From: a virus
Taxonomy: Duplodnaviria > Caudoviricetes
DNA: 64,000 nucleotides
Reading direction: 5' to 3' (one strand)
IMG/VR virus record: IMGVR_UViG_3300025389_001063
The notes beneath the pieces are model-generated. The model saw only the letters and a program-made list of their open reading frames with translations, did no database searches and had not been told where the DNA came from. The position numbers and the translations under genes are program-made. Of this stretch, positions 9,434 to 40,521 are shown piece by piece. Position 1 is the stretch's first letter. Every line of letters starts with the position of its first letter.

Positions 9434-10057
9434 ATGAGAGTAAGCAAAGCCCAATTTACTAATGATCCAAGTATTAGAAACGCAATTAGTGTTGATAGCG
9501 TTCTTTCACTTGACATGAAATACTTTGATAAAGAAGGTTTTGAACTCAACAAACTCGAGCAGGCATATTACAAAGTTAATAGCATACACATTGGACATAC
9601 CCTATATCACATCTGTTGCCAACAAGAATGGATAATAGGATCTTATGAACCTCTACAAGGTCCTTACTTTGATCATTGTATGATCTTAACAAGATTTGAT
9701 TATCAAGGTGCTGCTCGTGAACAATTAGAGAAATTTACTCCAAGAAGACCATGCCTAAACAAACTACTAAAAATAAAACCAAAGTATGGCGTTGATGTTA
9801 GCATGGAATATCAATGGCCGGATGGTGATATCTCAGAAATCTTCCATATTGAAATAGATCGTTATAGTAAAGACGAAATACTAGAGTGGAAAGAAAAATT
9901 AGAAAACATTGTTCTTAATACCGATTGGGCAGATGCTATGAACAGCATCATGCTTCGCAAATCAGAATGGGAACTAATGAACGCCGATGATCAAAGTGAT
10001 TGGCGTTGTCAATTTTTAGGATTACCTAGAGCATACGATACAATTAAGGTTTTATAA
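9434..10057 (+). CDS. hypothetical protein
   Basis: 207-aa ORF; ATAAATA at 9422-9428 lies 5 nt before the ATG and no SD is evident. Confidence 0.65.
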
Positions 10058-11228
10058 TTTCCACAAGAGCATTTACTAAATCTTCAATCATAGCATCAGT
10101 GTGAAGTGGTGTTGGAGCAAATCTTAATCTTTCAGATCCCACAGGAACAGTAGGATAATTAATGCACTGAGAATATATATCATAATCATTTAATAATCTA
10201 TCACTTATCTCTTTACATTTTTTTGCATCATTAACCATAACTGGAACAATGTGAGTTTCATTTTTTAATAATGTTATTCCTGCGTCTCTTAATTTATTCT
10301 TTAAGGTACTAGCACGTTCTTGATGTTTAATTCGTAATTCATTATGTTCTTTTAAGTATTTAACACTCGCCATTGCTCCAGCACAAAGCACAGGGCTTAT
10401 TGATGTTGTAAAAATGAAACCGTTAGCGAGACTCCTAATGCTGTCAATGACAACATTATCAGCAGCAATATAACCGCCACCCACTCCATAAGCCTTTCCC
10501 AAAGTTCCGTTAATAATGTCAATGCGTTTCTGAAGACCATACTTTTCACTTTTTCCTCCTCCTGTCTCTCCGTATAAACCAACTGCATGAACTTCGTCGA
10601 GATATGTGATAGCACCGTACTTGTCTGCTAAATCACATATCTCTCTCAAATTACTCACATACCCATCCATGCTATACACTGACTCAAATACTATACAAGG
10701 TGTTCCTTTAATTTCTTTTAATACATCTTCTAAATGGTTCATGTCATTGTGATTATAAATCACCTTCGGTGCTCTACTGTGACGCATACCTTCAATCAAT
10801 GAATTATGATTCTTACTGTCTGATACAAACACAATATCTTTTACAATTTTACTCAGAGCAATTAATGCCCATTCATTTGCTACATAAGCACTACTGAACA
10901 ACAAAGCCCGTTCTTTACTATGTAATCCTGCTAATTCATGTTCTAGGGCAACATGATAATGAGTAGTACCTGCTATGTTTCTTGTGCCACCACTACCTGC
11001 ACCAACAGCATCTAATGCTGTTCGCATAGCATCTAGCACTACTTTATGCTGACCCATTCCAAGATAATCATTAGAACACCAATTCACTATTTTTTTAATA
11101 CAATAGGGACCATACCAAAGAGCATGTGGATAATCTCCACACTCTCTTAATATATCGTTAAAAACTCTATACTTGCCCGCAAACTTTAAATCTGTTATAG
11201 TTTGTTCAAATAGACTTTTGTTAATCAT
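10044..11228 (-). CDS. hemA: 5-aminolevulinate synthase (PLP-dependent, Shemin pathway)
   Basis: [47 protein letters not shown] (PLP Lys). Start placed at 11228 (MINKSLF); the ORF track start at 11258 overlaps the divergent gene. Confidence 0.9.
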
Positions 11229-11256
11229 TGTATTACTTATTAATAAATATTGTCTC

Positions 11257-11853
11257 ATGAAATCGTTTGTGATATATCTTCCGGGTCATACCCTAACTGA
11301 AGAACACTTGCCCACTTTACAAAAAAGTGCTAAAAAACACAATTGGAATGTTGAACTCTTTGAAGGTATAGATGGTAGAAAAGTTCCTTTTACACATAAG
11401 ATAGATCATAGATATCCCAAAGCAGTTTCTGAATTAGAAAGACCCGGAGTTCGTGGTTGTTTTATGAGTCACTATCTACTTTGGAAGAAATGTTTAGAAT
11501 TAAATGAAACAATTGGCATCTTTGAAAGCGATATTATCTTTTATAAAAGTCCGCCATTACTAACAAAAGAATACGACCTTGTAAAATTAGATGGATTTAA
11601 GAGAGCCAAACCTGCGTCTACAGGTAATTGGCATAAAGGTGCTCATGCTTATATCTTACACCCAAGTGGTGCTAAAAAAATGGTAGATTGGACAGACACC
11701 TGGGGAGCCAGTCCAGCAGACTTTATGTTAGGTAACAAGGTTGTTAATATGAAATATGATTATGATGAACGAGTTAAATTAGCCAATCTAGGTTCTAGTC
11801 TTACTAGGAATTTAGAAGAAGAGATGTTAAACTTACAAAATAAGGAGATATAA
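11257..11853 (+). CDS. family 25 glycosyltransferase
   Basis: [24 protein letters not shown] and IFESD are GT25/Lex2B-type motifs. Start refined to ATG 11257. Confidence 0.8.
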
Positions 11854-12392: not shown

Positions 12393-15062
12393 ATGTCATA
12401 TGTGGATGGAATTTTTGATAGAACAAATGATCAAATTAAAATTGTTGAGAGAGTAGACGGCAAGAGACATTATAAAGAATATCCTGCTCGTTATGTCTTT
12501 TATTATCCAGATGCTAAAGGTAAGTACGAAAGCGTATATGGAGAAAAGTTAAGTCGTGTTAGTGCTCGCAATCAGAAGGACTTTCACAAAGAACTTAAAA
12601 TACATTCTGGAAAAAGAATGTACGAAAGCGACATTAATCCGATTTTCAAATGTTTAGAAGAACACTACTTAAACATAGATGCCCCGGAGTTACACATTGC
12701 GTTTTTCGATATTGAGACTGATTTTGATCCTGAGCGAGGCTTTGCTGATCCTAGTGACCCTTTTATGGGTATCACTGCCATTTCGGTACATCTTAAATGG
12801 TTAAACAGATTAGTAACACTTGCTGTTCCTCCTAAAGGATTAACAGTAGAACAAGCACAAGAACAATGTGCTGAATTTGAAGATTGTTTTATATTTGCTC
12901 GTGAAGCAGATATGCTAGAAACATTCCTTGATTTAATAGATGACGCAGATATATTAAGTGGTTGGAATTCGGAAGGTTACGACGTTCCTTATACTGTTAA
13001 TCGAGTAGCAAGAGTCTTAAGCAAAGAAGATACTAGACGTTTCTGCTTGTGGGATCAATTTCCCAAGAAACGAGAATTTGAAAAGTACGGACGTCAAATG
13101 GTTACATATGACTTTGTTGGTCGCGTACATCTTGACAGTCTTGAACTTTATAGAAAATACACTTATGAAGAAAGACATACATATCGACTTGATGCTATCG
13201 GTGAGATGGAAATAGGCGAACGTAAAACTGTTTACGAAGGCACACTTGATCAACTTTATAACAATGACTTTAGAACATTTATTGAATATAACAGGCAAGA
13301 CGTCGCACTACTTAACAAACTTGATGACAAATTAAGATTTATTGATTTGAGTAACGAACTTGCTCATGCTAACACCGTTCTACTTCAAACAACTATGGGT
13401 GCCGTTGCTGTTACTGAACAAGCAATTATAAATGAGGCTCATCGTCGAGGACTAATTGTTCCTAATCGTCCAAAGCGTGATGAAAGCGAAAATACACAAG
13501 CCGCAGGTGCTTATGTCGCTTATCCAAAAAAGGGATTACACGATTGGATCGGCAGTATGGATATTAACTCACTGTATCCAAGTGCTATTAGAGCATTGAA
13601 CATGGCTCCAGAAACAATCATTGGTCAGTTACGTCCGGAACATACAGACGAATACATCGAAACACAAATGAGATTACATAAGAAATCATTTGCTGCGGCA
13701 TGGGAAGGTCGATTCTCTACTTTTGAATATGATTGGGTTATGGATAAAGACAAAGGCAAAGAAATTACTGTTGATTGGGAGAATGGTGAATCAACTGTAA
13801 TGAGTGGAGCAGAGATTTATAAACTAATCTTTGATAGTCATAATCCTTGGATGATTACTTCCAATGGCACAATCTTTACACATGAGTTTGAAGGTGTTAT
13901 TCCTGGACTTCTAAAGCGTTGGTATGCCGAACGTAAAGAACTTCAGGCAAAGGCCAAAGAAGCATTAAAAGCAGATAACAAAGTAGAACATGCTTTTTGG
14001 GATAAGCGTCAGTTAGTTAAAAAGATTAACTTGAACAGTTTGTATGGTGCTATTCTTAATGCTGGTTGTCGTTTCTTCGATAAGCGTATTGGACAATCAA
14101 CTACTCTTGTTGGTAGGCAGGTTGCTAAACATATGGCATCAAAAGTTAATGAGATTGTAGCAGGAGAATATGATCACATTGGTAAGGCTATTATATATGG
14201 TGATACCGACTCTGTTTATTTCTCAGCATACAATGTCTTAAAGAAAGATATTGAGGCTGGAAACATTCCCTGGAGTAAAGATAATGTTATTAGCCTCTAT
14301 GATCAAATATCAGATGAAGTAAATGGAACATTCTCCAACTTCATGCTAAATGCCTTCCACTGTCCAAAGAGTCGCGGTGAAGTTATTAAGGCTGGTCGTG
14401 AAATTGTTGCCAGCAAAGGCTTGTTCATTACTAAAAAGCGTTATGCTGTTCTTTATTATGATTCAGAAGGCAAGAGATATGACGTTGATGATAAACCAGG
14501 CAAGATCAAGGCAATGGGCTTAGACCTTAAGAGATCAGATACCCCAGAGTTCATGCAAGACTTTTTAAGTAAGATCCTTGATCGCGTTCTAAATAATGCC
14601 AAGGAGGAAGAAATTCTTGATATGATTACACAATTTAGAATAGACTTTAAGAGTAGACCTGGATGGGAAAAAGGTTCTCCAAAGAGAGCAAACAATATTA
14701 CCGAATATATGAAGAAAGAACAAAAGGCCGGTAAGGCAAATATGCCGGGACATGTTAGAGCAAGTCTTAATTGGAATACTCTTAAGAAGATGTATAACGA
14801 TAACTATTCCATTACTATCAGTGACGGTTCAAAAGTTATTGTTTGTAAACTAAAACATAACCCAATGGGCTTTACATCTGTTGCGTATCCAGTTGACGAG
14901 CTAAGACTACCACAGTGGTTTAAAGATTTACCATTTGATGATGCTAGTATGGAAGCAGCAATTATCGATGCTAAACTAGACAACCTTATTGGCGTTCTAG
15001 AATGGAATCTTACGAGTACATCTGAATCTACAACGTTCAATAAATTATTTGCTTTTGACTGA
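12393..15062 (+). CDS. family B DNA polymerase (T4 gp43-like)
   Basis: ExoI FFDIETD; region II DINSLYPS; region III KINLNSLYG; region I YGDTDS. 889 aa with no visible intein. Confidence 0.95.
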   Translation: MSYVDGIFDRTNDQIKIVERVDGKRHYKEYPARYVFYYPDAKGKYESVYGEKLSRVSARNQKDFHKELKIHSGKRMYESDINPIFKCLEEHYLNIDAPELHIAFFDIETDFDPERGFADPSDPFMGITAISVHLKWLNRLVTLAVPPKGLTVEQAQEQCAEFEDCFIFAREADMLETFLDLIDDADILSGWNSEGYDVPYTVNRVARVLSKEDTRRFCLWDQFPKKREFEKYGRQMVTYDFVGRVHLDSLELYRKYTYEERHTYRLDAIGEMEIGERKTVYEGTLDQLYNNDFRTFIEYNRQDVALLNKLDDKLRFIDLSNELAHANTVLLQTTMGAVAVTEQAIINEAHRRGLIVPNRPKRDESENTQAAGAYVAYPKKGLHDWIGSMDINSLYPSAIRALNMAPETIIGQLRPEHTDEYIETQMRLHKKSFAAAWEGRFSTFEYDWVMDKDKGKEITVDWENGESTVMSGAEIYKLIFDSHNPWMITSNGTIFTHEFEGVIPGLLKRWYAERKELQAKAKEALKADNKVEHAFWDKRQLVKKINLNSLYGAILNAGCRFFDKRIGQSTTLVGRQVAKHMASKVNEIVAGEYDHIGKAIIYGDTDSVYFSAYNVLKKDIEAGNIPWSKDNVISLYDQISDEVNGTFSNFMLNAFHCPKSRGEVIKAGREIVASKGLFITKKRYAVLYYDSEGKRYDVDDKPGKIKAMGLDLKRSDTPEFMQDFLSKILDRVLNNAKEEEILDMITQFRIDFKSRPGWEKGSPKRANNITEYMKKEQKAGKANMPGHVRASLNWNTLKKMYNDNYSITISDGSKVIVCKLKHNPMGFTSVAYPVDELRLPQWFKDLPFDDASMEAAIIDAKLDNLIGVLEWNLTSTSESTTFNKLFAFD

Positions 15063-15077
15063 GAACCTAAGTATAAT
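15049..15077 (+). promoter_or_regulatory. sigma70-type promoter
   Basis: TTGCTT (15049-54), 17 nt, TATAAT (15072-77), upstream of the clamp/dpdA operon. Confidence 0.55.
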
Positions 15078-15097
15078 ATGAACATATGGAGAATGAA

Positions 15098-15829
15098 ATG
15101 TTAGACTTTTTAAGAGATTTAGTTCAACACACCCACTCACTAGGTGTTATTGACCTTGTAAAGATTACAGGCACAAAAGATTCAACTGCTATTGACGCAA
15201 TGGCAGAGAATAGAACAGTTATTGTTCAGGCAGAAACAAAGAATCCAGTTAAGGAAGTAAGTGGTACATTTGGTATGCCTAACCTTAACAAGTTAGACTT
15301 ACACTTAAAGAATCCAGAGTATAAAGAAGGTGCTCATATTGAAGTTGTTTGGGATAAGCGTAACGGAGAAGATACACCAGTTGAAATACTTTTTGAAAAT
15401 GCTGCTGGCGACTTTAAGAATGAATATAAGTTAATGGGTCAAGCACTTATCAATGAGAAACTAAAGACTGTTAAGTTCAAGGGTGCTACTTGGCAAGTTG
15501 AGTTTGAACCAAGCGTTACAAGTATTGCTCGTATGAAATTACAGGCTGCGGCACATACAGAGGAATCAGTATTCCTTGTTAAGACAGACAACAATGATCT
15601 TAAAGTGTTCTTTGGTGATGCTAGTACACACGAAGGTAGTTTTGTATTCCAACCAGGTATTACAGGTAAACTAAAACAGAATTGGTCTTATCCAATTGCT
15701 CAATTTATTAGCATACTTGGCCTAGGTGGCGACAAGACTATTAAGTTCAGTGACGACGGTGTTGCTCTTATTACTGTTGACAGTGGACTTGCTGTTTACA
15801 ACTATTACATTCCGGCACAAACAAAATGA
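15098..15829 (+). CDS. sliding clamp-like protein (gp45-like)
   Basis: About 243 aa, acidic, beta-rich, directly after the polymerase. GGAGA RBS favours ATG 15098 over 15086. Confidence 0.6.
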   Translation: MLDFLRDLVQHTHSLGVIDLVKITGTKDSTAIDAMAENRTVIVQAETKNPVKEVSGTFGMPNLNKLDLHLKNPEYKEGAHIEVVWDKRNGEDTPVEILFENAAGDFKNEYKLMGQALINEKLKTVKFKGATWQVEFEPSVTSIARMKLQAAAHTEESVFLVKTDNNDLKVFFGDASTHEGSFVFQPGITGKLKQNWSYPIAQFISILGLGGDKTIKFSDDGVALITVDSGLAVYNYYIPAQTK

Positions 15830-15933
15830 CCGAATTCGAGTTGCTTTATATCGGAACACCTATTGTATTAATAGTACTAGCAGGTATTATTATTTTAATA
15901 TGCTATCTGCTAGAGAAAAAAGGACTTTTATGA
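15826..15933 (+). CDS. 35-aa single-transmembrane miniprotein
   Basis: MTEFELLYIGTPIVLIVLAGIIILICYLLEKKGLL*; ATGA overlaps with both neighbours. Found manually. Confidence 0.6.
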   Translation: MTEFELLYIGTPIVLIVLAGIIILICYLLEKKGLL

Positions 15934-17471
15934 ACGAGAATTTAACGGCAACACAGAATGACTATGCGGTTTTCCTACCTGCCGTTAGTACTTTCTATTC
16001 AACATTTATAGGGAAACAACGATTTAGCAACTATGTAGATCCTACTCGAATACCAGCAGGATTTACTAACGGTGTCGAAGGATTAAACTTCTTTGATCCA
16101 GAAAAAGGTTACTTCTATTACAAGTGGGGATTGTATTCAGCAGGTCATGCTGAATTAGATCTCAATAAGATTAGCGAAAAGGAAGATATGTTTCGCAAAC
16201 GACCACGCAACGGTGATAGCATTGTTGTTGGTGATAGTGGAGGCTTCCAGATCGGTAAAGGCGTTTGGGAAGGTGATTGGAAAGATCCTAATTGTCCTAA
16301 GGCCAAGAAGAAAAGAGAACAAGTCCTTGCTTGGATGGATGCTCTTATGGACTATGGAATGATTCTCGATATTCCGGCATGGGTTGCTCGTAGTCCGGCA
16401 GGTGCTAAAGCAACTGGTATTAGTTCTTATCAAGAAGCAGTTAATGCTACATTCATTAACAATGATTATTTTATTAGAAACAGAAATGGGAGTTGTAAGT
16501 TTTTAAATGTTTTACAAGGTGAAAACCATACCGAGGCCGACGATTGGTACGATCGTCAAAAAAAGTATAGCGATCCTAAAGTATATCCAAATGAACATTT
16601 CAACGGGTGGTCTATGGGTGGTCAAAATATGTGCGATGTTCATCTTGTTTTACGTCGTCTTGTGGCTCTTCGTTATGATGGGCTAATTGAAAAAGGTAAA
16701 CAAGATTGGATGCATTTTCTTGGTACAAGTAAACTAGAGTGGGCATGTTTATTAACTGATATACAACGAGCAGTTCGTAAATATCACAACGAGAACTTTA
16801 CTGTTTCTTTTGATTGTGCTAGTCCTTTTCTTGCTACTGCTAATGGACAAGTTTATATTCAGACAGAAACTCCACATCATAAGAAGTGGACATATCGAAT
16901 GGTTCCTTCTATAGATGATAAAAAATATGCTACAGATACAAGAACATTCCGTGATGCTGTTTTACAAGATGGTATTTTTAAGAACTTTACCGACTCTCCA
17001 ATTAGTTCACGTTCTTTAGTCAAAGATGTTTGTATCTATAAGCCAGGCGATCTAAATAAGAATGGTAAGGAAGGTAGAACTTCTTGGGATAGTTTTTCAT
17101 ATGCCATTCAAATGGGACATAATGTATGGATGCATATTAATTCGGTTCAAGAAGCAAATAGACAATATGATAATAAAGTGATTCCAAACATGTTATTTAT
17201 GGACGGATTTGATAGGCTTTATTTCAAAGATGTAGTGGATAGAATCTTTGAGACTGATGATCGCGACAAAGCATTAGAACTCGTCGACGATTATAACAAG
17301 TTCTGGATTAGCATTATCGGAACAAGAGGTGCTACTGGAAAAAAGACCGTCAATTCTTCAACATTCTTTAATAAACATTTCGACGTTGAAGAAACGCCGG
17401 TCGAACATCATCTAGATGACAGCGGTCTAGATGAAAGTAATCTTGAAAAGTTAGAGGAGTCTGTAGAATGA
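15930..17471 (+). CDS. dpdA: TGT-fold 7-deazaguanine DNA transglycosylase (DpdA/DpdA2-like)
   Basis: GDSGGFQIG, MILDIP, WMHFLGT and FDCAS match TGT-family catalytic and substrate motifs; clustered with folE and queE. Start refined to ATG 15930. Confidence 0.75.
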   Translation: MNENLTATQNDYAVFLPAVSTFYSTFIGKQRFSNYVDPTRIPAGFTNGVEGLNFFDPEKGYFYYKWGLYSAGHAELDLNKISEKEDMFRKRPRNGDSIVVGDSGGFQIGKGVWEGDWKDPNCPKAKKKREQVLAWMDALMDYGMILDIPAWVARSPAGAKATGISSYQEAVNATFINNDYFIRNRNGSCKFLNVLQGENHTEADDWYDRQKKYSDPKVYPNEHFNGWSMGGQNMCDVHLVLRRLVALRYDGLIEKGKQDWMHFLGTSKLEWACLLTDIQRAVRKYHNENFTVSFDCASPFLATANGQVYIQTETPHHKKWTYRMVPSIDDKKYATDTRTFRDAVLQDGIFKNFTDSPISSRSLVKDVCIYKPGDLNKNGKEGRTSWDSFSYAIQMGHNVWMHINSVQEANRQYDNKVIPNMLFMDGFDRLYFKDVVDRIFETDDRDKALELVDDYNKFWISIIGTRGATGKKTVNSSTFFNKHFDVEETPVEHHLDDSGLDESNLEKLEESVE

Positions 17472-17680: not shown

Positions 17681-18274
17681 ATGAAGAGAGACTACGACAA
17701 TGGTGTTAAAGATGATGTCAAATTCTTTGTTGGCACGGAAATAGAGCATACTCCTGCTTACGAAAAGAAAACACTCTTTGTCGTAGGCTTACAGAATCCA
17801 GATAAGGTTGCTAAACTTGCTCAAGCAATGGATATAGATCATATCTATCTCGGTGCTAATCATAGTTTTAATAATACTAATCTTATGTACTGGGAGGCAG
17901 TTATTTTAGAATTACTTAAAAGAGACTTTTGGGTAACTTTAGATTTTGATTACAAATATTATGAAGATATTATGGATAGTCTTGCTTATTGGAATGAACA
18001 TGATAGATTTATTTCACAAATTAGTATAAAATTACCTTATACATCACTACTTAATTACAATACCTGTATTAAGATTGACGACAAAGACTTTAGAGCAACT
18101 AATCCGGGTGTATGGGTACATCATTTACACGACTTACAGGATCGTAAAAAGTTTACAGATTGGTCACAATATGGCAAAGACACTCCAATAGTTGTAGATG
18201 AACCTAACGAAACTGCTACAACTGTTATAGAAGATGAAATTTTAATTGTGGAGACAGTATACAATGGCGCCTGA
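17681..18274 (+). CDS. hypothetical protein in the deazaguanine cluster
   Basis: 197-aa ORF with AAGGA RBS. Confidence 0.65.
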   Translation: MKRDYDNGVKDDVKFFVGTEIEHTPAYEKKTLFVVGLQNPDKVAKLAQAMDIDHIYLGANHSFNNTNLMYWEAVILELLKRDFWVTLDFDYKYYEDIMDSLAYWNEHDRFISQISIKLPYTSLLNYNTCIKIDDKDFRATNPGVWVHHLHDLQDRKKFTDWSQYGKDTPIVVDEPNETATTVIEDEILIVETVYNGA

Positions 18275-18626
18275 TAGTGGAATGATATGGGTTACTTTTC
18301 GTAAGGAAGGTATTCACAAATATCCAGCAGCATTAGATGATCCTAATCTTGCTGATGTTAGTTTTCTCGGTTATCCACATAGACATATGTTCCATTTCAA
18401 AGTTTGGATTGAAGTATTTCATGAAGACCGAGAAATTGAATTTATTCAATTTAAGCGTTGGCTAGAAAGTTTGTATAGCGGAACACTCGAATTAAGTTAC
18501 AAAAGTTGCGAAATGATTGCACAAGATTTATATCTTCAAATTAAACAAAAATATCCAGGGCGTGAGACTTGGATTGAAGTTAGTGAGGATGGAGAAAATG
18601 GCTGTTTCAAACAATGGAAAAACTAA
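18264..18626 (+). CDS. QueD-like T-fold protein with LxxxHRHxF motif (candidate DpdL CDG decarboxylase)
   Basis: LGYPHRHMFHF at 18366-18392 in place of canonical CxxxHGH; C-terminal SCEMIA. Start refined to 18264. Confidence 0.65.
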   Translation: MAPDSGMIWVTFRKEGIHKYPAALDDPNLADVSFLGYPHRHMFHFKVWIEVFHEDREIEFIQFKRWLESLYSGTLELSYKSCEMIAQDLYLQIKQKYPGRETWIEVSEDGENGCFKQWKN

Positions 18627-18639
18627 GGAGAACAATATA

Positions 18640-18846
18640 ATGGCGTTTAGTAGATATCCTGATATTAATAAAATCTTTGATGAATTAGATGCTTATCTAG
18701 CATTTTGTAAAGAGTTTGGTTACGTGTATAATGAGAAGGACTTATATAATTTCAAGACACCATATGGTCAATTTGATCGTTGGAAGCGAGGCCAAAGAAT
18801 AACAAACAATTGGAGAGAAGATAGATTCAATGTTGTATCTAGTTGA
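18640..18846 (+). CDS. hypothetical protein
   Basis: 68 aa (MAFSRYPDINKIF...) after an AAGGAG RBS. Start refined from 18517. Confidence 0.65.
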   Translation: MAFSRYPDINKIFDELDAYLAFCKEFGYVYNEKDLYNFKTPYGQFDRWKRGQRITNNWREDRFNVVSS

Positions 18847-19912
18847 TTTGGAACCAGTCGATACTCGTTATACTTCACAATGGAGAAAATATCTACCTCT
18901 TCAATTAAGAGATGCAGGTATTGAAACAACCATTATACCAGGAGGACATGTTCCACAAACTTTAACTCCAGGTGCTTTTTTAAACTTTGCCGGTACTAAT
19001 AATTACAAAAGCCAACAAATGTTAAGAATAAGTCAATTATTCTCAAATGGATCTATCAAGGACGGTGATTATTTCTTATATACCGATGCTTGGAACCCTA
19101 CCGTTATACAATTAAAGTATATGGCAGAATTACTAGGTATTAAGATTAAAATTGGTGGTATGTGGCATGCTGGTAGTTATGATCCTCAAGACTTTCTAGG
19201 TAGGCTCATAGGTGATGTTCCTTGGGTAAGAAATGCTGAGGCATCTATGTTTCATTGCTATGATCATAATTTCTTTGCTACCGAATTTCATCTCAAAATG
19301 TTTCTTAAAGAACTGTTTGGCGAAGATGACATTGAGGGATGGAAAGAATATTATCCAGGAACATTGCTTGTCGGATGGCCGATGGAATATCTTTACGAAT
19401 TATTAGCACCATATATGCCTGTTCCTAAAGAAAATATAATAGTATTTCCTCATAGACTAGCACCAGAAAAACAGCCTGAGATATTTGATGATCTTGCAAT
19501 GTCTATGGAAGATTATGAATACAAGTGGATTAAAGCACAAGAAACTGTATTAACAAAAAATGAATATTATAGATTGTTAGGTCAAAGTAAAATAGTCTTT
19601 AGTGCTAATTTACAAGAAACATTAGGTATAAGTGTATATGAAGGTGCAATGGTTGGATCATTCCCGTTAATGCCAAATAGATTAAGTTATAAAGAAATGT
19701 GGCCGGCAGATTCTCTGTATCCAAGTGAATGGACAGAAAGTTGGGATTCATACCTAGAACATAAAGACAAACTAATAAATGTTATACACCGAATAATGAA
19801 TTCGTATGATATACCAATGTTAGTTGAATCTAGAAGAATTGCCGAAGAAGTTGGTGAAAAATTCTTTAACGGTAAAGAGATTTATAAGACTATAATTGAC
19901 TCTACAACCTAA
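18830..19912 (+). CDS. GT-B fold glycosyltransferase in the deazaguanine cluster
   Basis: WHAG, VFPHRLAPEKQPE and QETLGISVYEG (E-x7-E) motifs. Confidence 0.7.
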   Translation: MLYLVDLEPVDTRYTSQWRKYLPLQLRDAGIETTIIPGGHVPQTLTPGAFLNFAGTNNYKSQQMLRISQLFSNGSIKDGDYFLYTDAWNPTVIQLKYMAELLGIKIKIGGMWHAGSYDPQDFLGRLIGDVPWVRNAEASMFHCYDHNFFATEFHLKMFLKELFGEDDIEGWKEYYPGTLLVGWPMEYLYELLAPYMPVPKENIIVFPHRLAPEKQPEIFDDLAMSMEDYEYKWIKAQETVLTKNEYYRLLGQSKIVFSANLQETLGISVYEGAMVGSFPLMPNRLSYKEMWPADSLYPSEWTESWDSYLEHKDKLINVIHRIMNSYDIPMLVESRRIAEEVGEKFFNGKEIYKTIIDSTT

Positions 19913-19964: not shown

Positions 19965-20657
19965 ATGACAATGACTAACTGTACTTGCAATGGCACAGCC
20001 GCTGCTATTGCTCAACGTCTAAAAGATAAAGGCGTTAGATTTTTTTGTAATGATAATATTAGTGAATATATCTTTCCTGAAGAACACGATCTGCTTCTAG
20101 CAGAAGTCGAAGAAAACATGAAGAAGGTTCTCGAAAGTCTTGTCATTGATACAGAAAACGATCATAATACAAACGATACTGCTCATCGTGTTGCTAAAAT
20201 GTTTATGAATGAAATCTTTGCTGGTCGGTATGAGCCACAACCAAAGATTACAGCATTTCCAAATGCTAATTCTTATGATGAACTTTATGTAACTGGTCCC
20301 ATTACTATTCGTTCAACTTGTGCCCATCATTTTCAAGGTATTAGAGGTAGAGCATATATTGGAGTATTTCCAGGTAAAAATGTTATCGGATTAAGTAAAT
20401 TTAATCGTATCACAGATTGGATTGCTAGTCGTCCACAAATACAAGAAGAAATGACTGTACAAGTTGCTGATGCAATTGAAAAAGCAACAAAAGCAGAAGG
20501 TGTTGCTGTTCTCATACAAGCAGAACATTTGTGTATGACACATCGGGGTGTAAAAGAACACGAGAGTGATATGACAACTTCTATTATGCGTGGTGCTTTT
20601 AGATCTGATCCACATTTGAAACAAGAATTTTTTAATATAGTAGCGAGGATGAAATAA
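19965..20657 (+). CDS. folE: GTP cyclohydrolase I
   Basis: TAHRVAKM, STCAHHF, GLSKFNRI, RPQIQE and AEHLCMTHRG Zn/GTP motifs. Confidence 0.95.
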   Translation: MTMTNCTCNGTAAAIAQRLKDKGVRFFCNDNISEYIFPEEHDLLLAEVEENMKKVLESLVIDTENDHNTNDTAHRVAKMFMNEIFAGRYEPQPKITAFPNANSYDELYVTGPITIRSTCAHHFQGIRGRAYIGVFPGKNVIGLSKFNRITDWIASRPQIQEEMTVQVADAIEKATKAEGVAVLIQAEHLCMTHRGVKEHESDMTTSIMRGAFRSDPHLKQEFFNIVARMK

Positions 20658-21122: not shown

Positions 21123-21597
21123 TAGTATATGGGGTAAAGGTAAAAACGGTGAAGATCTTTGTATAACATCAGACATGCTAGATAGTTGGCAAAAACATGT
21201 TGATCAAATTAATTTGGAAAAAACAATGATTAATACAGGAACAATTACAATACCAAGTAACAATACTATAGATCTTAGTAATATCACTATTGATGCTAGT
21301 AGCAGTAACAATATGTATTACACTAATAGTGATGGAACAATAAGCACTATTACATTATCACCTCCAAGTGCTAGTAATACTTCTTCCACTTATACAATAG
21401 ACACCGAAAGATATTGGGATACTCACAGTGATTTTTTTCGACAAATGCGAGAATTTGAAGACATTATGCCTTCCTTGACAAAAGTCGAAGAAATGTGTAG
21501 TATGTATCCATCACTAGATAAAGCCTTTGAAAATTTCAAAGCCATTTATAATCTAGTTAAAGATGATTACGAGGCAAGAAAAAACAATGATACCTAA
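21109..21597 (+). CDS. hypothetical protein, probable paralogue of the upstream gene
   Basis: Thr/Ser/Asn-rich middle and C-terminal MYPSLDKAFENFKAIYNLV. GTG 21109 with GGAG RBS preferred over TTG 21097. Confidence 0.55.
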   Translation: MTKNNSIWGKGKNGEDLCITSDMLDSWQKHVDQINLEKTMINTGTITIPSNNTIDLSNITIDASSSNNMYYTNSDGTISTITLSPPSASNTSSTYTIDTERYWDTHSDFFRQMREFEDIMPSLTKVEEMCSMYPSLDKAFENFKAIYNLVKDDYEARKNNDT

Positions 21598-22084
21598 GAC
21601 ATATATCTCATGGCAAGACGTTCAAGGACATGTAAACAATATAGCAGTAAAACTATATCGAGATAATTGGACACCTGATTACATTGTAGGTATACATAGT
21701 GGTGGATCCATTCCTGCTGTTATGCTCTCTAAAATGTTAGGTATTAAATCATATAGTCTCGATGTTAGACTTCGCGACAACGACGAAGATCCAGAAACTA
21801 ATGCTTGGATGAGTGAAGATGCTTTTAATGGTATAAAGATTCTAGTTGTAGACGATATCAACGACAGTGGTGCTACTATTAATTGGATTAAAAAAGATTG
21901 GAAAGATAGTTCTTTGCCTTATGATATTAAATGGGATACTATATTTGGAGATAATGTAAAATTTGCTACAATGATTAATAATCTATCTAGTAATTCGACT
22001 GTAGATTATTACTCAACTGAGATTAATAAAGCAGAAAAAGACGAATGGATTGTTTTTCCTTGGGAAGATTTTTGGAGTAGATAA
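21587..22084 (+). CDS. type I phosphoribosyltransferase (purine PRTase-like)
   Basis: PRPP loop ILVVDDINDSGAT, DYIVGIHSGG and WIVFPWE. Start refined to 21587. Confidence 0.85.
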   Translation: MIPKTYISWQDVQGHVNNIAVKLYRDNWTPDYIVGIHSGGSIPAVMLSKMLGIKSYSLDVRLRDNDEDPETNAWMSEDAFNGIKILVVDDINDSGATINWIKKDWKDSSLPYDIKWDTIFGDNVKFATMINNLSSNSTVDYYSTEINKAEKDEWIVFPWEDFWSR

Positions 22085-22318: not shown

Positions 22319-23170
22319 ATGAAAATCAAAATATCAGAAATCTTTTACAGTCTGCAAGGCGAAGGACAGTATATAGGTGTTCCTAGTATCTTTTTAAGAA
22401 CATTTGGATGTAATTTTACCTGCGGCGGATTTGGAATGCCACGAGGAAAAGTTTCTACTGAAAGAGATGAGATTGCTAAAAAATCTCTCGAATATATTGA
22501 TTATAAAAATTTGCCATTAGTTAGCACAGGTTGTGACAGTTATGCTTCTTGGGATCCTAGATTTAAACATCTATCACCTTTTATGGAAGTCGTAGATATT
22601 GTTGATCGTTTTCAAAAACTACTTCCAGATAGAAAGTTTGGAGAAAAACATTTAATTATTACAGGAGGCGAACCTTTATTAGGTTGGCAACGTTCTTATC
22701 CAGAATTAATTGCTGAGATTTATAATCGAGAAATGAATCTAAAATATTTGACTTTTGAAACTAATGGAACTCAACCATTAGAAGAAAATTTTAAAAAATT
22801 CTTAATCGAGTTAGTTGAAACATTTGGAATAGAAATTACATTTTCAATTAGTTCCAAACTTCCATGTAGTGGTGAAAAGTTTGATGATGCTATTAAACCA
22901 GAAGTTGTAAAAGATTATCTTACTATTCCAAACAGAAGTTATTTCAAATTTGTCATTGCTAATGAACAGGATGCATTAGATGCTCAAGCAGCATTAGGAG
23001 AATATAAGAAAGCAGGAATTGATATTCCAGTTTACTTAATGCCAATCGGTGGTACTAATTCAGTATACGAAATGAATGAAAGACAAGTTGCAGATTATGC
23101 TAGGGATATTGGATATAGGTTTAGTCCACGTATTCAAGTTCCACTATATAAAAATGAATGGGGGACCTAA
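22319..23170 (+). CDS. queE: 7-carboxy-7-deazaguanine synthase (radical SAM)
   Basis: EIFYSLQGEG, FLRTFGCNFTC...CDS with an insertion, TGGEP, ETNGT, FSPRIQ. Confidence 0.9.
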   Translation: MKIKISEIFYSLQGEGQYIGVPSIFLRTFGCNFTCGGFGMPRGKVSTERDEIAKKSLEYIDYKNLPLVSTGCDSYASWDPRFKHLSPFMEVVDIVDRFQKLLPDRKFGEKHLIITGGEPLLGWQRSYPELIAEIYNREMNLKYLTFETNGTQPLEENFKKFLIELVETFGIEITFSISSKLPCSGEKFDDAIKPEVVKDYLTIPNRSYFKFVIANEQDALDAQAALGEYKKAGIDIPVYLMPIGGTNSVYEMNERQVADYARDIGYRFSPRIQVPLYKNEWGT

Positions 23171-27104: not shown

Positions 27105-28811
27105 ATGCTCACATATAAAGCACCTGTTGAAGAATCGTTATTTCTTATAAAAGATGTTCTTAAAGTTGATAATGATTTGTTAGAGCCTATTATTCAAGAA
27201 GCCGCTAAACTCGCTGAAGAAGTTATTGCTCCTACAAATCAAGAAGGTGACAACGTAGGTTGTTTTTGGACTAATGGTCCTGGATTAGAATATCCAGAAG
27301 TTGTAACTACTCAATCATTTAAAGAACCATGGAAACAATTTACAGAAGGTGGGTGGTGCGGATTAAATGTTCCAGAAGAATATGGAGGTCAAGGACAACC
27401 TTACCTTCTTGCTGCTGTTGTAAACGAATTTGTATCAGCAGCAAATATGTCATTTGGTCTATTTCCAGGTCTTACTCGTGGAGCAATCCAAGCACTATTA
27501 GAAGTTGCTACAGAAGAACAAAAACAAAAATACATTCCTATGATGGCTTCTGGTAAATGGACCGGCACTATGAATCTTACCGAACCGCATTGCGGAACTG
27601 ATCTCGGTTTGTTAAAGACAAAATCTATTCCAAATGAAGATGGAACATATTCTATTACTGGACAAAAGATTTTTATTAGTGCTGGTGATCACGATTTAAG
27701 TGAAAATATTATTCATCTTGTTCTTGCTCGTATCGAAGGAGCATCAGCAGGAACTAAAGGTATTAGTCTATTCATTGTTCCTAAATTCTTAGAAAATAAT
27801 GAAAGAAATAAAGTTACATGTGGAGCTATTGAAAAAAAGATGGGCATACATGGAAGTCCAACTTGTCAGATGTTTTTTGACAATGCCACAGGATACTTGT
27901 TAGGAGAGAAAGGAAAAGGTCTCATTCATATGTTTATTATGATGAATGAGGCAAGACTCGGAGTTGCTGTTCAAGGGTTAGGACAGAGTGATCTTGCTTA
28001 TCAAAATGCTGTTAAATATGCTATAGACCGATTACAAGGAAGATCATTAACTGGTGTTAAAAATGAACAAGGACCTGCTGATCCTATTATCGTTCATCCT
28101 GATGTTCGCCGTATGCTTATGGACATAAAATCTGTTAACATGCCAGGACGTTTGTTAATTTATAAGGCTGCTTTGCTTTGCGATAAGAAAGACGATCAAT
28201 CACAAGATATTCTCGGACTAATGACTCCTATCCTTAAAGGTGTTATGTCTGATTATGGTTTTGAAAATGCTGTAAAGGCACAACAGGTTTTTGGAGGACA
28301 CGGTTATATCAAAGAATGGGGCATGGAACAGATTGTTCGCGATGCTCGTATTGCCCAAATCTACGAAGGTGCTAATGGCATTCAAGCATTAGATCTAGTT
28401 GGACGTAAACTTCCAAAGAATATGGGTAGAGCAGTTCGTACTCAATTCAAACTTTTTGAAGAACAACTTGAAAAAGATTTGAATAACGAAAATGTAAACA
28501 AATGGGCATACTTTGTTGAGAGAGCATATCAAGATCTTAAGAAGGCTACAAATTGGCTTGTCCAAAATGGTATGAAAAATCCAGATAATGCTGGAAGTGC
28601 CTCATACGATTATATGAAACTTTTTGGACTTGTTTATATGGGATTTGCTTGGCTCGATATTATTAAAATCGCACAAGAAAAGAATATGAAAGACAAACTA
28701 ATTATGGCAGATTATTTTGTTGATCGTATTCTCCCAGAAACTTCGTTTCTTTGGAGCAAAATAGAAAGTGGATCTAAAAGCATGATGGATCTACCAGTTG
28801 ACAAGTTCTAA
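27105..28811 (+). CDS. acyl-CoA dehydrogenase (FadE/DmdC-like long form)
   Basis: GTMNLTEPHCGTDLG, ITGQKIFISAG, KMGIHGSPT, MNEARLG, QVFGGHGY and QIYEGANGIQALDL. Confidence 0.9.
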   Translation: MLTYKAPVEESLFLIKDVLKVDNDLLEPIIQEAAKLAEEVIAPTNQEGDNVGCFWTNGPGLEYPEVVTTQSFKEPWKQFTEGGWCGLNVPEEYGGQGQPYLLAAVVNEFVSAANMSFGLFPGLTRGAIQALLEVATEEQKQKYIPMMASGKWTGTMNLTEPHCGTDLGLLKTKSIPNEDGTYSITGQKIFISAGDHDLSENIIHLVLARIEGASAGTKGISLFIVPKFLENNERNKVTCGAIEKKMGIHGSPTCQMFFDNATGYLLGEKGKGLIHMFIMMNEARLGVAVQGLGQSDLAYQNAVKYAIDRLQGRSLTGVKNEQGPADPIIVHPDVRRMLMDIKSVNMPGRLLIYKAALLCDKKDDQSQDILGLMTPILKGVMSDYGFENAVKAQQVFGGHGYIKEWGMEQIVRDARIAQIYEGANGIQALDLVGRKLPKNMGRAVRTQFKLFEEQLEKDLNNENVNKWAYFVERAYQDLKKATNWLVQNGMKNPDNAGSASYDYMKLFGLVYMGFAWLDIIKIAQEKNMKDKLIMADYFVDRILPETSFLWSKIESGSKSMMDLPVDKF

Positions 28812-31313: not shown

Positions 31314-31605
31314 TCAAGACTTAATTGATCAATGGCCAGAAATCTTAGGAGATGTAAATTTAGACGCTATACCTATATTTTATCTTCATAGTGTAGTAAT
31401 TACGTTCCAGGATGGAAACGTCTGGAACGTAGTTCTCAAAAAAGAACATAAAGAATCGGATGGAGAAAAATTTACAGAAACATTAAACGAACTTTTTCAA
31501 AATTATGAAAAACAAATACAACATGTTGACTTTAGATTAGATATTGAAAAACTTAAAAAAGATATTATTAAATCTACTAATCAATTTACAAAGAGAAAAA
31601 GATGA
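31285..31605 (+). CDS. hypothetical protein
   Basis: 106-aa ORF with GTG start. Confidence 0.6.
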   Translation: MPKKTSKPLNQDLIDQWPEILGDVNLDAIPIFYLHSVVITFQDGNVWNVVLKKEHKESDGEKFTETLNELFQNYEKQIQHVDFRLDIEKLKKDIIKSTNQFTKRKR

Positions 31606-32474
31606 CTTTACGTAACGAAATAGATTTTGCTAACGACCCTAACTACGTTCCAGTTCTTGATCACGGTTTTGTAGGATTAGTAGATTATATGGGCAGTGAT
31701 GATGCTATTGTACAAGCAGCCCGTGTTAGTTATGGTAAAGGTACTAAAAGTGTAAACACAGATCGAGGCTTAATACGCTACCTCATGCGTCACGAGCATA
31801 CAACTCCTTTCGAAATGTGTGAAGTTAAATTTCATATTAAATTACCTATATTTGTAATGCGTCAATTAGTAAGACACAGAACAGCAAGTATGAATGAATA
31901 TTCTGCTCGCTATTCTGTGATTACTGATGAATTTTATATTCCACAACACGATCAATTAAAAGAACAGAGTGCAAATAATAAACAAGGCCGAGATGACGAT
32001 CTTGCTCCAGATGAAAAAGAATATGTTACTGAAAGCATGAGAAATCTTTGGGATTATAATTATAATACTTATGAATATTATATTAATAACTACAATCTAG
32101 CTAGAGAATCTGCTAGAACAGTTTTACCAGTTGGTGGCTACACAGAGTGCTATTGGAAAGCCAATCTTAAAAACTTCTTACATATGGCTAGATTACGCAT
32201 GGATTCACATGCTCAATGGGAAATACGTGAATATGCTAATGCTATGTATAATCTAGCAAAACCTCTATTTCCTGCTGCTTGCGAAGCATTCGAAGATTAT
32301 CAAGTAGATTCAGTTAAAGTTAGCGGATTAGAAGTTCCTTTATTACGTCGTTTAATTAGTCGTAATACATGGCTAGATATGCTAGAAGATTATAGAAGTG
32401 AAGAATTATTAGCAAAACAATTTGGTTTAAGTCAAAGAGAACTTGACGATTTTAAGAAAAAATGGATATCTTAA
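31602..32474 (+). CDS. thyX: FAD-dependent thymidylate synthase
   Basis: QAARVSY, RHEHTTPFE, RQLVRHR...NEYSARY, HAQWEIR. Confidence 0.95.
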   Translation: MTLRNEIDFANDPNYVPVLDHGFVGLVDYMGSDDAIVQAARVSYGKGTKSVNTDRGLIRYLMRHEHTTPFEMCEVKFHIKLPIFVMRQLVRHRTASMNEYSARYSVITDEFYIPQHDQLKEQSANNKQGRDDDLAPDEKEYVTESMRNLWDYNYNTYEYYINNYNLARESARTVLPVGGYTECYWKANLKNFLHMARLRMDSHAQWEIREYANAMYNLAKPLFPAACEAFEDYQVDSVKVSGLEVPLLRRLISRNTWLDMLEDYRSEELLAKQFGLSQRELDDFKKKWIS

Positions 32475-32533: not shown

Positions 32534-34594
32534 ATGCCCTTAAAACTAAGAAGAGGCACAAATGCCGAAAGAATAACTATAACACCCGCCGAAGGTGAAC
32601 TTATTTATTCGACAGATACTAAGAAAATTTATGTAGGTGACGGAATAACTCAAGGCGGTATTGACGTTACTGGGGCGGCCAGTTTATTTGGTCCTTTATC
32701 TGGAAATTTAGACATAAATCATTATAACATTACAGGTATAGGAAATGTCGAAGTTAATGGTATTATCAGTAACGGACCATTATCTTTAAATTCAAACTAT
32801 ATTTCAAGTTCTTCAGGTTATGTATCACAAGGACTAGGAAATCATATTGGAATTTTAGAATTAAGTACACCTACTAATCTTTTACAAATAAACAGATATT
32901 GGTCAGATCCTAACGAACCTATCGAAATACAGACAGGTATTACTAATAGTTTTACTTCGTTAATGTCTGATAGAAGAAGTTCTAGAGGATCTGTAGGTAT
33001 TCCTACAGCAACTATTCCTGGTGATAATATTGCTTTAGAAAGATTTTGGGGTCATGACGGATTTAATTATCTACCAACTTCAGCAATATGGCATGGTGTT
33101 GATCCCAACGGAACAGTATCTCCAGGATTTGTTCCTGGTGCTATAGCACTTATAACAGAAGGTATCGGCGGTCCACACGTTGTTAGTGTAGATTCAAAAG
33201 GAAATTTAGGAATAGGTGTATACCCTGAACTTGTACAGGAAAAACTACATGTAGAAGGTAATGCATTAATATCTGGAACTTTAATTGCAGGTGCAGTTAG
33301 AGGTTCAATTTTTGCTGATAACTCGAGTGTATTGATTGACAGTATATATGGTAATATGTATGCTAATAATTTGTCAGTTACTGGAATTTTAAATTGTGGA
33401 GAGACAGTACAAAAATCTCCAAACGGATATCTTGATATTTCTTCTAGATATGGAATTACCTCAGGTCTTACTTCGTTGATGACTGGAAATTATGCATCAA
33501 GAGGATCATTAGTTAGTCCTTCATCATTACACACTGGTGATTCAATTAGTTTTATAAGAAATTTTGGTCACGATGGAAGTAACTATGTATTTTCTTCTGG
33601 TATACAATTTGGATTAGATCCATCTATAAGTTCAAGTATAGCACCAAGTACAGGAAAAATGCCTGGTGCAATTGGTTTCATTGTTGTTGATGAAAATAAT
33701 ATCCAAAATTATGTTTCTATAGACTCAGCAGGACAAGTAGGTATTGGAACATTTCCTAATCCAACAACAGAGGCACTCGATGTTAATGGTAATGGTAAAT
33801 TTAGTGGTAGTATTACAACAACTTCAATACAACAAAATTTATCTTCAGGAGTTGACGCTACAAAACTATATGGTATTTCAGATGGTGTTAATTGTCTTGT
33901 AACTTCTAATTATGCATCAAGAGGTAGTTTACCATCACCATCTTCTCTCTATTTAGGTGATTCTATTTCTGCTATAAGAAATTATGGATTCGATGGTACC
34001 AACTATATACTTTCTTCTGCTATAGATTTTGTTTTAGATGGATCATATACTCCATCAACAGGTTATATGCCTGGAGCGATAGCATTTTTTGTTCAAGGAT
34101 CTTCTGGACAAAAAATAACAACTATTAATTCTAATGGTTATTTAGGAATTAATAAATTTCCAAGTGTAACTGAAGAAGCGCTCGATGTTAATGGTAATGG
34201 TAAGTTTAGTGGACACATTACTGTTAATAATTCTACAAATAATAGTTCAGTACAAATTACTGGTTATGCTAATAAAGGTGGTACTGGATATCATGACTTT
34301 ATGAGTGTCACTAACACTTATAGTAGTGCTACTAATCCTAACAAATATTTCCGTTTAGATTCATCTGGATCATTCCAAATTGTTGATAGTACTTATAATA
34401 ATACTTTATTCAATTTAACCAATGCCGGTCATACTATTGTTAGAGGTTATGTACAATTTGGTTCTTTCTCCGCTACAGAAAGAGCAGCATTAACTCCTGC
34501 TAACGGAATGGTTATCTATAATACTACTGCTAATAAATTCCAAGGTTATCAAAATGGTGGCTGGATCAATTTAGACACAGGTGCTGCTGCTTAA
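32534..34594 (+). CDS. tail fibre / receptor-binding protein with internal repeats
   Basis: N-terminus LKLRRGT...PAEGELIYSTDTKKIYVGDG typical of phage fibre anchors; three SRGS...GD...DG.NY...PGAI modules. Confidence 0.7.
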   Translation: MPLKLRRGTNAERITITPAEGELIYSTDTKKIYVGDGITQGGIDVTGAASLFGPLSGNLDINHYNITGIGNVEVNGIISNGPLSLNSNYISSSSGYVSQGLGNHIGILELSTPTNLLQINRYWSDPNEPIEIQTGITNSFTSLMSDRRSSRGSVGIPTATIPGDNIALERFWGHDGFNYLPTSAIWHGVDPNGTVSPGFVPGAIALITEGIGGPHVVSVDSKGNLGIGVYPELVQEKLHVEGNALISGTLIAGAVRGSIFADNSSVLIDSIYGNMYANNLSVTGILNCGETVQKSPNGYLDISSRYGITSGLTSLMTGNYASRGSLVSPSSLHTGDSISFIRNFGHDGSNYVFSSGIQFGLDPSISSSIAPSTGKMPGAIGFIVVDENNIQNYVSIDSAGQVGIGTFPNPTTEALDVNGNGKFSGSITTTSIQQNLSSGVDATKLYGISDGVNCLVTSNYASRGSLPSPSSLYLGDSISAIRNYGFDGTNYILSSAIDFVLDGSYTPSTGYMPGAIAFFVQGSSGQKITTINSNGYLGINKFPSVTEEALDVNGNGKFSGHITVNNSTNNSSVQITGYANKGGTGYHDFMSVTNTYSSATNPNKYFRLDSSGSFQIVDSTYNNTLFNLTNAGHTIVRGYVQFGSFSATERAALTPANGMVIYNTTANKFQGYQNGGWINLDTGAAA

Positions 34595-34607
34595 TAATAA
34601 GTAGAGT

Positions 34608-35168
34608 GTGTTTATACTCATTCCTTGGAAACGATCTTTAAACCTTGACGAGTTTTATGCTGAAGCGGCTCGTCGAGGTTTCGATAACAACTCCTCTCAA
34701 AAAAAGATGATCGATTGTCTAGCGAATGAGGATAAATGGGCTGCTTGGATCTTATATCAAAATAATAAACCTATAGGATCTGTAGCAGCCCATTCTTTTG
34801 ACAACATTATGGGTCCAAACAGTTATAGAATATGTGTAAGAACTTGTATATTACCACATGATCGAGAATACAAAGCAGTTATAACAGCAAAAAGAGCGAT
34901 AGCAGAACATCAAAATCTTACTTCACAATTCTTCATACCTAAATGCATAGATTGGACTGGAAAACATAATAATTTGTATATAACATCAAATGAGAATAGT
35001 AGCGGTTCTCAAAAATTAGTTCATACTATATTTTTTCCAACTCTTGCTAAAAAAGGAATTATGACTAAGATTAAAGATGTTCATTATAGAGGAACAGATC
35101 AAACTGTTTGGAAACTTAATGTAGATCTTTTTATAAAAGATTTAGTACATTATCCTAGATGGAATTAA
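34608..35168 (+). CDS. putative GNAT-like acyltransferase
   Basis: WILYQNNKPIGSVAAH...YRICVRTCILP pattern; weak resemblance only. Confidence 0.4.
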   Translation: MFILIPWKRSLNLDEFYAEAARRGFDNNSSQKKMIDCLANEDKWAAWILYQNNKPIGSVAAHSFDNIMGPNSYRICVRTCILPHDREYKAVITAKRAIAEHQNLTSQFFIPKCIDWTGKHNNLYITSNENSSGSQKLVHTIFFPTLAKKGIMTKIKDVHYRGTDQTVWKLNVDLFIKDLVHYPRWN

Positions 35169-35845
35169 CAACTTATAATAATATTAAAATCAGTAAATGG
35201 TAATAATTCTTGAACTTTATCAATAAATTGTCGTTCTACGTCAAACTTTACTATATTAGTACCATTAAAATTAAAATTATCAATAAGACCTCTCTTATTT
35301 GCTCTATTAAGCCAGGGACTTAATTTATGGTCAAATCTATAACGAGCATCACTGTCGATTTTAGATATATCAAGAGTAATAGTCATACTAACTCTATCTT
35401 TTAATTCACTATGAGTAAGTAATTGTCTCACAACTAATTGTGTTCTAGGAATACTACCAAAATTAGCAGCAACATGTAAACGACCTGCATCCATATCATA
35501 CCATATACCATCTTCTTCTACACGATGCATAATCTTATTATCTAAGTCAATTAGATATGCTTGCTCACCACGAATATTAAGATGCCAACGATCATCAATG
35601 TCTGCATGACTATAATAGTTAACACCCCTATCCAATGTAATAAGTCTTGCTTCTCCCTTTGGGTAAGGAAGGGAGTTATATATCTTTTCCCAGATTGTTC
35701 CTCTATATTCATCTTTTAATTCCCATTCATCATAAAAATAACTTGTTATAGGACGATTTATAGTAGTTCTATCATTTTCAGGGATAGACTCTTTTGCTTT
35801 TTCAATATCTTCTAAATCTACAGAATAAATGGTTTCTCTAATCAT
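35165..35845 (-). CDS. 2OG-Fe(II)/cupin oxygenase (Asp/Asn beta-hydroxylase-like)
   Basis: EARLITL...YYSHADID.RWHL and later DAGRLHVAANFG (HxD...H triad). Confidence 0.65.
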   Translation of the reverse strand: MIRETIYSVDLEDIEKAKESIPENDRTTINRPITSYFYDEWELKDEYRGTIWEKIYNSLPYPKGEARLITLDRGVNYYSHADIDDRWHLNIRGEQAYLIDLDNKIMHRVEEDGIWYDMDAGRLHVAANFGSIPRTQLVVRQLLTHSELKDRVSMTITLDISKIDSDARYRFDHKLSPWLNRANKRGLIDNFNFNGTNIVKFDVERQFIDKVQELLPFTDFNIIISC

Positions 35846-35897
35846 GAAAATATTTAGTGGAGTAATATGCTACTATAAATATTCTTGGAGAAAGCCT

Positions 35898-38332: not shown

Positions 38333-38922
38333 TATTTTTTTCCTATTAACATATACCTTGTATATTTTGGTAATTCCTTTTCACCTGCCCAAAGAACGTT
38401 AATGTGACTCTGATCTCTAAAATCCTCTAAGGAGTTTGCAATCCGTACGTGTTCCGGAATGACATAATTGTTACTCTGTAATACTAATATACTATCTTTA
38501 GGCATATTATTCAACCACGTTTCGTAGTCTGCCTGTGTAATGTGTTCACAAGAGGTATTAATTATAACCTCTGCATTAGTATTTACGTCAATCATGTTAG
38601 AAGTTACTGCTGTAAATCTACCCTCTATTTCTTCTAACTTATTCATAGTGTATGCTGTGACTTCACACTCTGGATCTAAATCAAGAGATGTTATTCTGCT
38701 AATAGGAATTCCCGACTGGAATAATAAACTTGCTAATACACCAACCCAGCCGCCGTGAATATCTATTCTAACAGATTTTTTAATAAACGGTCTTAAATTT
38801 TCAATTAACCAAAGTTTTGAGTTAATTTGACCTTTCCAAAATGCTTCTAATGTTCTATTTTGATCTTTACTATTACGTATAGCATCCATCCAAAAAAGAA
38901 TATGATCAACGTTCAAATTCAT
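38332..38922 (-). CDS. class I SAM-dependent methyltransferase
   Basis: IDIHGGWVG glycine loop, SLDLD, VIINTSCEH. Confidence 0.75.
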   Translation of the reverse strand: MNLNVDHILFWMDAIRNSKDQNRTLEAFWKGQINSKLWLIENLRPFIKKSVRIDIHGGWVGVLASLLFQSGIPISRITSLDLDPECEVTAYTMNKLEEIEGRFTAVTSNMIDVNTNAEVIINTSCEHITQADYETWLNNMPKDSILVLQSNNYVIPEHVRIANSLEDFRDQSHINVLWAGEKELPKYTRYMLIGKK

Positions 38923-40519: not shown

Positions 40520-40521
40520 TA

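Follow-up and report, generated by a model that had tools for sequence, protein, structure and literature searches.

The gene at positions 18830-19912 of the window (the whole 64,000-nucleotide stretch of viral DNA analysed here) encodes a putative glycosyltransferase (GT) and lies among genes of deazaguanine synthesis, which raises the question of the molecule that receives its sugar. The window belongs to a large phage genome rich in A and T, in which the polymerase and clamp, a 513-aa gene, small ORFs, a 197-aa gene, dpdL, a 68-aa ORF, the GT gene, folE, a phosphoribosyltransferase gene and queE follow one another in a single co-oriented block. The features concerned are the following:

12393-15829, plus strand: family B DNA polymerase and sliding clamp (homologues so annotated in Phosso and PA5oct); directly upstream, replication context
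15930-17471, plus strand: DpdA2-like DNA guanine transglycosylase, 513 aa, with DSGGFQ, QG, GG, HFLG and FDC motifs
17681-18274, plus strand: conserved 197-aa protein, partial alpha/beta barrel weakly resembling QueE, without CxxxCxxC
18264-18626, plus strand: T-fold protein DpdL, predicted CDG decarboxylase, with LGYPHRHMF corresponding to LxxxHRHxF
18640-18846, plus strand: conserved 68-aa ORF, weak match to phrog_38713
18830-19912, plus strand: GT, predicted retaining GT4-type GT-B glycosyltransferase, 360 aa, donor domain akin to QTMAN/GTDC1
19965-20657, plus strand: FolE, GTP cyclohydrolase I (PF01227, E 1e-50)
21563-22084, plus strand: phosphoribosyltransferase (PF00156, E 9e-13), frequent in the cluster (63 of 80 loci)
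22319-23170, plus strand: QueE, CDG synthase of the radical SAM type (phrog_2076, E 7e-50)
31602-32474, plus strand: ThyX thymidylate synthase (PF02511, E 1e-56), pointing to normal dT

The GT open reading frame starts with ATG, and GGAGA is found about 14 nt upstream of it. The initial annotation had placed the gene between the T-fold gene and folE, as is the case, and had it overlap its upstream neighbour; the overlap of 17 nt is real, but the partner is the 68-aa ORF and not the T-fold gene. The AlphaFold2 model (pLDDT 89.5) adopts a GT-B fold with two Rossmann domains, and its top structural matches are all retaining GT-B enzymes aligned across the whole length, with sucrose-phosphate synthase giving a Z score of 23.6 (rmsd 3.2, 318 residues aligned) and BshA 23.3. 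A single-sequence Pfam search yielded no significant match, nor did searches of PHROGs, PADLOC and the PDB return anything; among the homologues, PF00534 was detected in 33 of 65 close sequences at E<=0.05 and in 95 of 114 diverse ones at E<=1 (best value 4.5e-9). The E-x7-E motif reported earlier is E263-TLGISVY-E271, in which E271 is kept in 114/114 and E263 in 112/114 diverse homologues, and the whole set H113, R209, K214, E263 and E271 is conserved in 112-114 of the 114. By analogy with GT4 enzymes generally, R209 and K214 presumably form the R-x4-K phosphate clamp and H113 the histidine that follows beta-4, next to the E-x7-E pair. To judge from the model and these motifs, the gene product is a real retaining GT4-type GT-B enzyme, and it is predicted to transfer a sugar. 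Its family is large: more than 7,800 clusters exist at 90% identity, and at 50% there are 428 with E<1e-30. Among cultured phages, Sinorhizobium phage Phosso has the most similar GT (48%), followed by the Pseudomonas PA5oct/Paride group (43-44%). With the homologue of phage X1 as query, a scan of viral sequences returned nothing.

The initial annotation compared the enzyme with the T-even glucosyltransferases of hmC. These are likewise phage GT-B enzymes encoded near replication genes, they protect DNA, and AGT is also retaining; the analogy thus stands at the level of the fold (AGT, Z 18.4). It does not extend to the sequence, the GT family profile scoring T4 AGT at -1.5 bits and BGT at -1.7 bits (hhalign 1.3%). 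With the same profile, every one of the 20 bacterial QTMAN_N-family proteins scored 50-80 bits, whereas some 29 ordinary GT4s stayed at or below 11.5 bits; the QTMAN set was made of bacterial PF12038 members of predicted function, with human QTMAN outside it. In the reciprocal search the GT obtained 46.8 bits (family median 43), against 24.7 for the best generic GT4. Profile-profile alignment with hhalign gave 99.5% (E 4e-22) for the QTMAN family and 97.4% (E 2e-11) for generic GT4, and with the donor domain 99.7% (E 2e-26) against an E-value of 9e-10. The donor domains of the GT and QTMAN/GTDC1 have in common the motifs HRxxxxK-P, Y..L..S, E-x7-E and P.RL.Y.E, and in the donor-domain tree the two families are joined at 94/89, slightly below strong support. 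QTMAN/GTDC1 therefore appears to be the closest family among those tested, with the qualification that the two most divergent homologues, those of X1 and BCSR5, score equally well or better against generic GT4. The acceptor domain aligned with QTMAN_N at an hhalign probability of 0.9%, no improvement on generic GT4, and PF12038 was neither matched in the GT at E<=1 nor present among the 25 families that the search listed across 114 members. By these comparisons the GT is a relative of the queuosine glycosyltransferase that stands outside the QTMAN family, the likeness being limited to the donor domain.

This specific kinship with PF12038-bearing proteins, together with the joint donor-domain branch, speaks for a QTMAN-like enzyme acting on queuosine of host or phage tRNA. 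GT and QTMAN share the GT-B fold, and QTMAN is known to act on a 7-deazaguanine derivative that forms part of a nucleic acid. However, QTMAN, a tRNA-queuosine alpha-mannosyltransferase, takes its mannose from GDP-mannose and attaches it to the cyclopentene hydroxyl of queuosine (Q) in tRNA, and the pathway encoded here cannot make Q; the neighbours of the GT indicate DNA and UDP-Gal instead. The lack of PF12038 among the listed families, the failure of the acceptor domains to align, a gene context of DNA replication and DpdA, and the observation that bacterial QTMAN-like genes have no dpd or que neighbours within 1.5 kb all argue in the same direction, and we regard a tRNA substrate as very improbable.

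The neighbouring genes point to a base that is inserted into DNA. The 513-aa protein contains the invariant TGT motifs, and its family profile matches bacterial TGT at 96% (E 2e-9) and ACP17-type DpdA at 100%. The ACP17 enzyme is 34-36% identical to proteins of Vibrio nt-1 and VH7D, which we infer to be DpdA2; as one family with ACP17-type DpdA, the 513-aa protein can be called DpdA2-like. The T-fold protein is 34.5% identical to phiST CGPG_00067 (E 2e-10) and carries the LxxxHRHxF motif by which DpdL was defined (Cui et al., PMC10516641), so that on sequence grounds it is identified as DpdL rather than QueD. The 197-aa gene, present in 75 of 80 close loci and usually directly upstream of dpdL, belongs to a family of at least 7,878 clusters. 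Its product was folded (pLDDT 90.5) as a candidate hydroxylase or hydroxymethylase, and this assignment was dropped, as no match was clear (best Z 6.5; QueE Z 6.0; not significant).

QueD was absent from the 64-kb window. It was found in five of five complete GT-bearing phage genomes, often distant from the cluster, and no QueC above the cut-off was detected in these five. The presence of QueD without QueC implies that preQ0 and preQ1 would not come from the phage's own genes and that the phage-encoded pathway would end at CDG or 7-deazaguanine, although the host could supply preQ0. The initial annotation had suggested the hypermodification of a deazaguanine side chain. The tie of glycosylation to the deazaguanine pathway is supported, but the side chain itself may not exist, since DpdL is predicted to remove the CDG carboxyl and no QueC scored above the cut-off in the five complete genomes.

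The initial annotation also suggested looking for co-occurrence with dpd genes, and this was found, in distant lineages too. DpdL stands beside the GT in 80 of 80 close loci and a DpdA2-like gene is present in 76 of them, most viral loci forming one syntenic clade and hence being non-independent. In a GT subfamily about 24% identical, the counts are 75/80 for DpdL and 74/80 for the DpdA2-like gene. Seven distant representatives, some of them in PolA-type phages, had DpdL near the GT in 9/9 loci, with a DpdA2-like gene or a TGT-like gene of DSGAH motif nearby wherever the contig was long enough; distant loci devoid of the DpdA2-like gene mostly had the DSGAH-motif gene nearby. Eight of eight distant representatives, again including some PolA-type phages, lie in phage replication regions with folE. 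In PA5oct, ACP17, X1, BUCT-ZZ01 and BCSR5 the gene order is reshuffled and the genes are still clustered; in Phosso, DpdA is about 170 kb from the GT.

The association is also found in bacteria. Mobile defence-type islands of alphaproteobacteria carry a Vut_1 transporter, the GT and DpdA, usually with a 585-aa gene, and keep GT and DpdA without folE or queE. An early idea that these islands lack DpdL was dropped, DpdL being found just past the initial flanks in several; it often lies 3-11 kb away and was detected in five of ten genomes searched and at three further loci, and was not found in five island host genomes. A survey of 401 genomes from a single bacterial family turned up two GT genes (one being the seed), each next to DpdA and close to DpdL; DpdL itself occurred three times. 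The set formed by Vut_1, GT, DpdA and the 585-aa protein (L101-L118, L199, L266-L269), seated beside integrases and defence genes (MC2/CTD6) and, in L103, beside what looks by eye like a CBASS-like pair, is possibly an undescribed bacterial DNA-modification cassette.

In the opposite direction, the link is loose. DpdL without GT occurs, then with the small DpdA3, and DpdA2-like genes without GT also occur; searches of five DpdL/DpdA3 phages, among them phiST, the DNA of which carries plain dDG, did not detect the GT. Such a one-way link is what an optional final step would produce. A distant GT beside the DpdA2-like gene of the preQ1-type Vibrio phage 2.275.O was tested as a family member and rejected, indicating that DpdA of this type can do without the GT.

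These distributions also bear on whether the GT could be a passenger of a conserved block, with another base (hmC or hmU) or a virion or surface glycan as its target. Further sugar enzymes are indeed encoded in the window, such as the GT25 at 11173-11853, synteny inside the clade is strong, and there is one partial exception to the linkage with deazaguanine genes: Xanthomonas phage PhiXhv-12 (L086, L277) has a distant GT homologue among amino-sugar genes (GlmS-like, deacetylase), its folE and queE stand in the replication block more than 100 kb away, and no DpdL or DpdA was detected in the PhiXhv phages. Against this, the linkage persists through reshuffling, different phage lineages and transfer to bacteria. 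The T-even enzymes moreover need hmC from gp42, and the earlier remarks that ThyX is encoded and that no hmC synthase is visible were borne out, no gp42 homologue being found in the window or in scanned loci L001-L208; at most one strong match to thymidylate synthase was obtained in the five complete genomes. A target unrelated to deazaguanine thus seems distinctly improbable.

Neighbours of the relatives give indications on the donor. GalE (UDP-glucose 4-epimerase) is encoded in 123 of about 200 GT loci, directly downstream of the GT in 62, and a UDP-glucose/GDP-mannose dehydrogenase in 46; neither gene is found in the present window. The GalE neighbour suggests that many relatives use a donor of the UDP-galactose type. 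A Vut_1 (YhhQ-like) transporter lies near the GT in 23 phage loci (L007-L024 and others), which suggests precursor salvage.

The GT protein is acidic, with a pI of 5.0 (family medians 5.2-5.7) compared with 9.0 for BGT and 6.1 for AGT, and so fits poorly to a DNA substrate. Acidity and Vut transporters near the GT are what a different account can claim, in which a free deazapurine or pterin is glycosylated for storage, transport or as an antimetabolite, as in huimycin or biopterin glucoside, and never enters DNA. The top fold matches are small-molecule GT4s, including the BH4 glucosyltransferase (Z 18.8), and HuiG of huimycin biosynthesis glycosylates a preQ0 derivative, a 7-deazapurine base, from a UDP-sugar (bioRxiv 10.64898/2026.04.15.718813). 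HuiG is set beside the GT on grounds of function; its product is a free secondary metabolite and no DpdA is involved. The near-constant partner of the GT is, in contrast, a DNA transglycosylase, deazapurine clusters of secondary metabolism reportedly lack insertion enzymes, and the bacterial islands retain GT and DpdA while losing folE and queE. We consider this account unlikely; the acidity and the transporters can also mean that a free base is glycosylated first.

The reading that we prefer, with a probability of about 0.7, is that the GT glycosylates a 7-deazaguanine base destined for DNA. The FolE-QueD-QueE route to CDG and the insertion of deazaguanines into DNA by DpdA are established. 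Here FolE, QueD (encoded elsewhere in the genome, or by the host) and QueE would convert GTP into CDG, which DpdL would turn into 7-deazaguanine by removal of the carboxyl, as predicted in the literature. The DpdA2-like enzyme, by the activity of its family, would exchange this base for some guanines. The GT would transfer a hexose from an NDP-sugar onto 7-deazaguanine with retention of configuration, either in DNA or on the free base beforehand; where GalE adjoins the GT, as in many relatives, the donor is probably UDP-Gal or UDP-GalNAc. The sugar-bearing base would shield the phage DNA from restriction. In this scheme fold, motifs, gene identities by homology, linkage and kinship were computed, and the DpdL, DpdA2 and GT steps are deduced.

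Among the closest known systems is that of phiST, which shares FolE, QueE, DpdL with the same motif, a DpdA and the absence of QueC. It differs by its small 259-aa DpdA3, where a large DpdA2-like protein is encoded here, and by having none of the extra GT, phosphoribosyltransferase and 197-aa protein; plain dDG has been found in its DNA (Cui et al. 2023, bioRxiv 10.1101/2023.04.13.536721, PMC10516641). In the same study, DpdL was predicted to decarboxylate CDG, attempts to demonstrate this failed, among them one with dpdL and dpdA of ACP17, which gave no dDG in E. coli, and further enzymes were proposed as possibly needed; a GT step could explain the absent product.

The position of the sugar raises a chemical difficulty. 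Since 7-deazaguanine lacks a hydroxyl group, the sugar must go onto C7, the N2 amine or a retained carboxyl, and the chemistry would be unusual. On a rough split, attachment at C7, either direct or by way of a small group introduced at that position, is the leading candidate at somewhat less than even odds; the N2 amine, which is the glycosylation site in huimycin, would take about a third of the weight, and the retained CDG carboxyl is the least probable. The C7 route could be direct, perhaps coupled to decarboxylation, or could proceed via a group supplied by an unassigned neighbour. A more ambitious proposal, which as a whole we hold to be less likely than not, is that widespread phages and some islands have in their DNA a glycosylated purine, possibly a C7-glycoside of 7-deazaguanine, made by DpdL decarboxylation coupled to a GT that serves DNA and is kin to the tRNA queuosine mannosyltransferase of eukaryotes.

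As far as we know, only pyrimidines have so far been described as glycosylated bases in DNA. If the preferred reading is true, a sugar-bearing guanine analogue would be a new DNA base chemistry in a very large family, and the kinship of the GT would connect DNA modification in phages with the way in which mannosyl-queuosine arose in eukaryotes. Eight deazaguanines are known in DNA and none bears a sugar (Cui et al. 2023, PMC10516641). Members occur in two Pseudomonas jumbo phages already under study, PA5oct and Paride, which have modified G; for PA5oct the evidence is indirect, the pattern in which its DNA resists five enzymes in restriction data having been interpreted as modified G (PMC12191111). 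In the openly accessible literature searched, no mass spectrometry of any GT-bearing phage was found, and no description of this module turned up in connection with DpdA, deazaguanine glycosylation or QTMAN in phages; an earlier computational prediction elsewhere is possible.

Other sugar-related genes were recorded. A second, unrelated GT4, common to BUCT-ZZ01 and several islands (L085:6001-7344; L110:12272-13468, minus strand; L201:12277-13671), could add a second sugar. In the window, a 352-aa ORF at 175-1233 (minus strand) displays GT-B-like motifs by eye (FGAVRPLKN, SETFNIVGAD) and has no Pfam match, and a run of GT-A-looking, Pfam-negative genes at 38906-43816 (minus strand) adjoins baseplate and tail genes and is possibly devoted to virion glycosylation. 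Just upstream of the polymerase, 10044-11853 encodes a class II aminotransferase resembling ALA synthase (minus strand, PF00155) and the GT25 (plus strand, PF01755). A full acyl-CoA dehydrogenase, unusual for a phage, is encoded at 27105-28811 between an AAA ATPase and a VWA-type protein. Finally, the cumulative GC skew peaks around 34000-36000, where the coding strand also switches.
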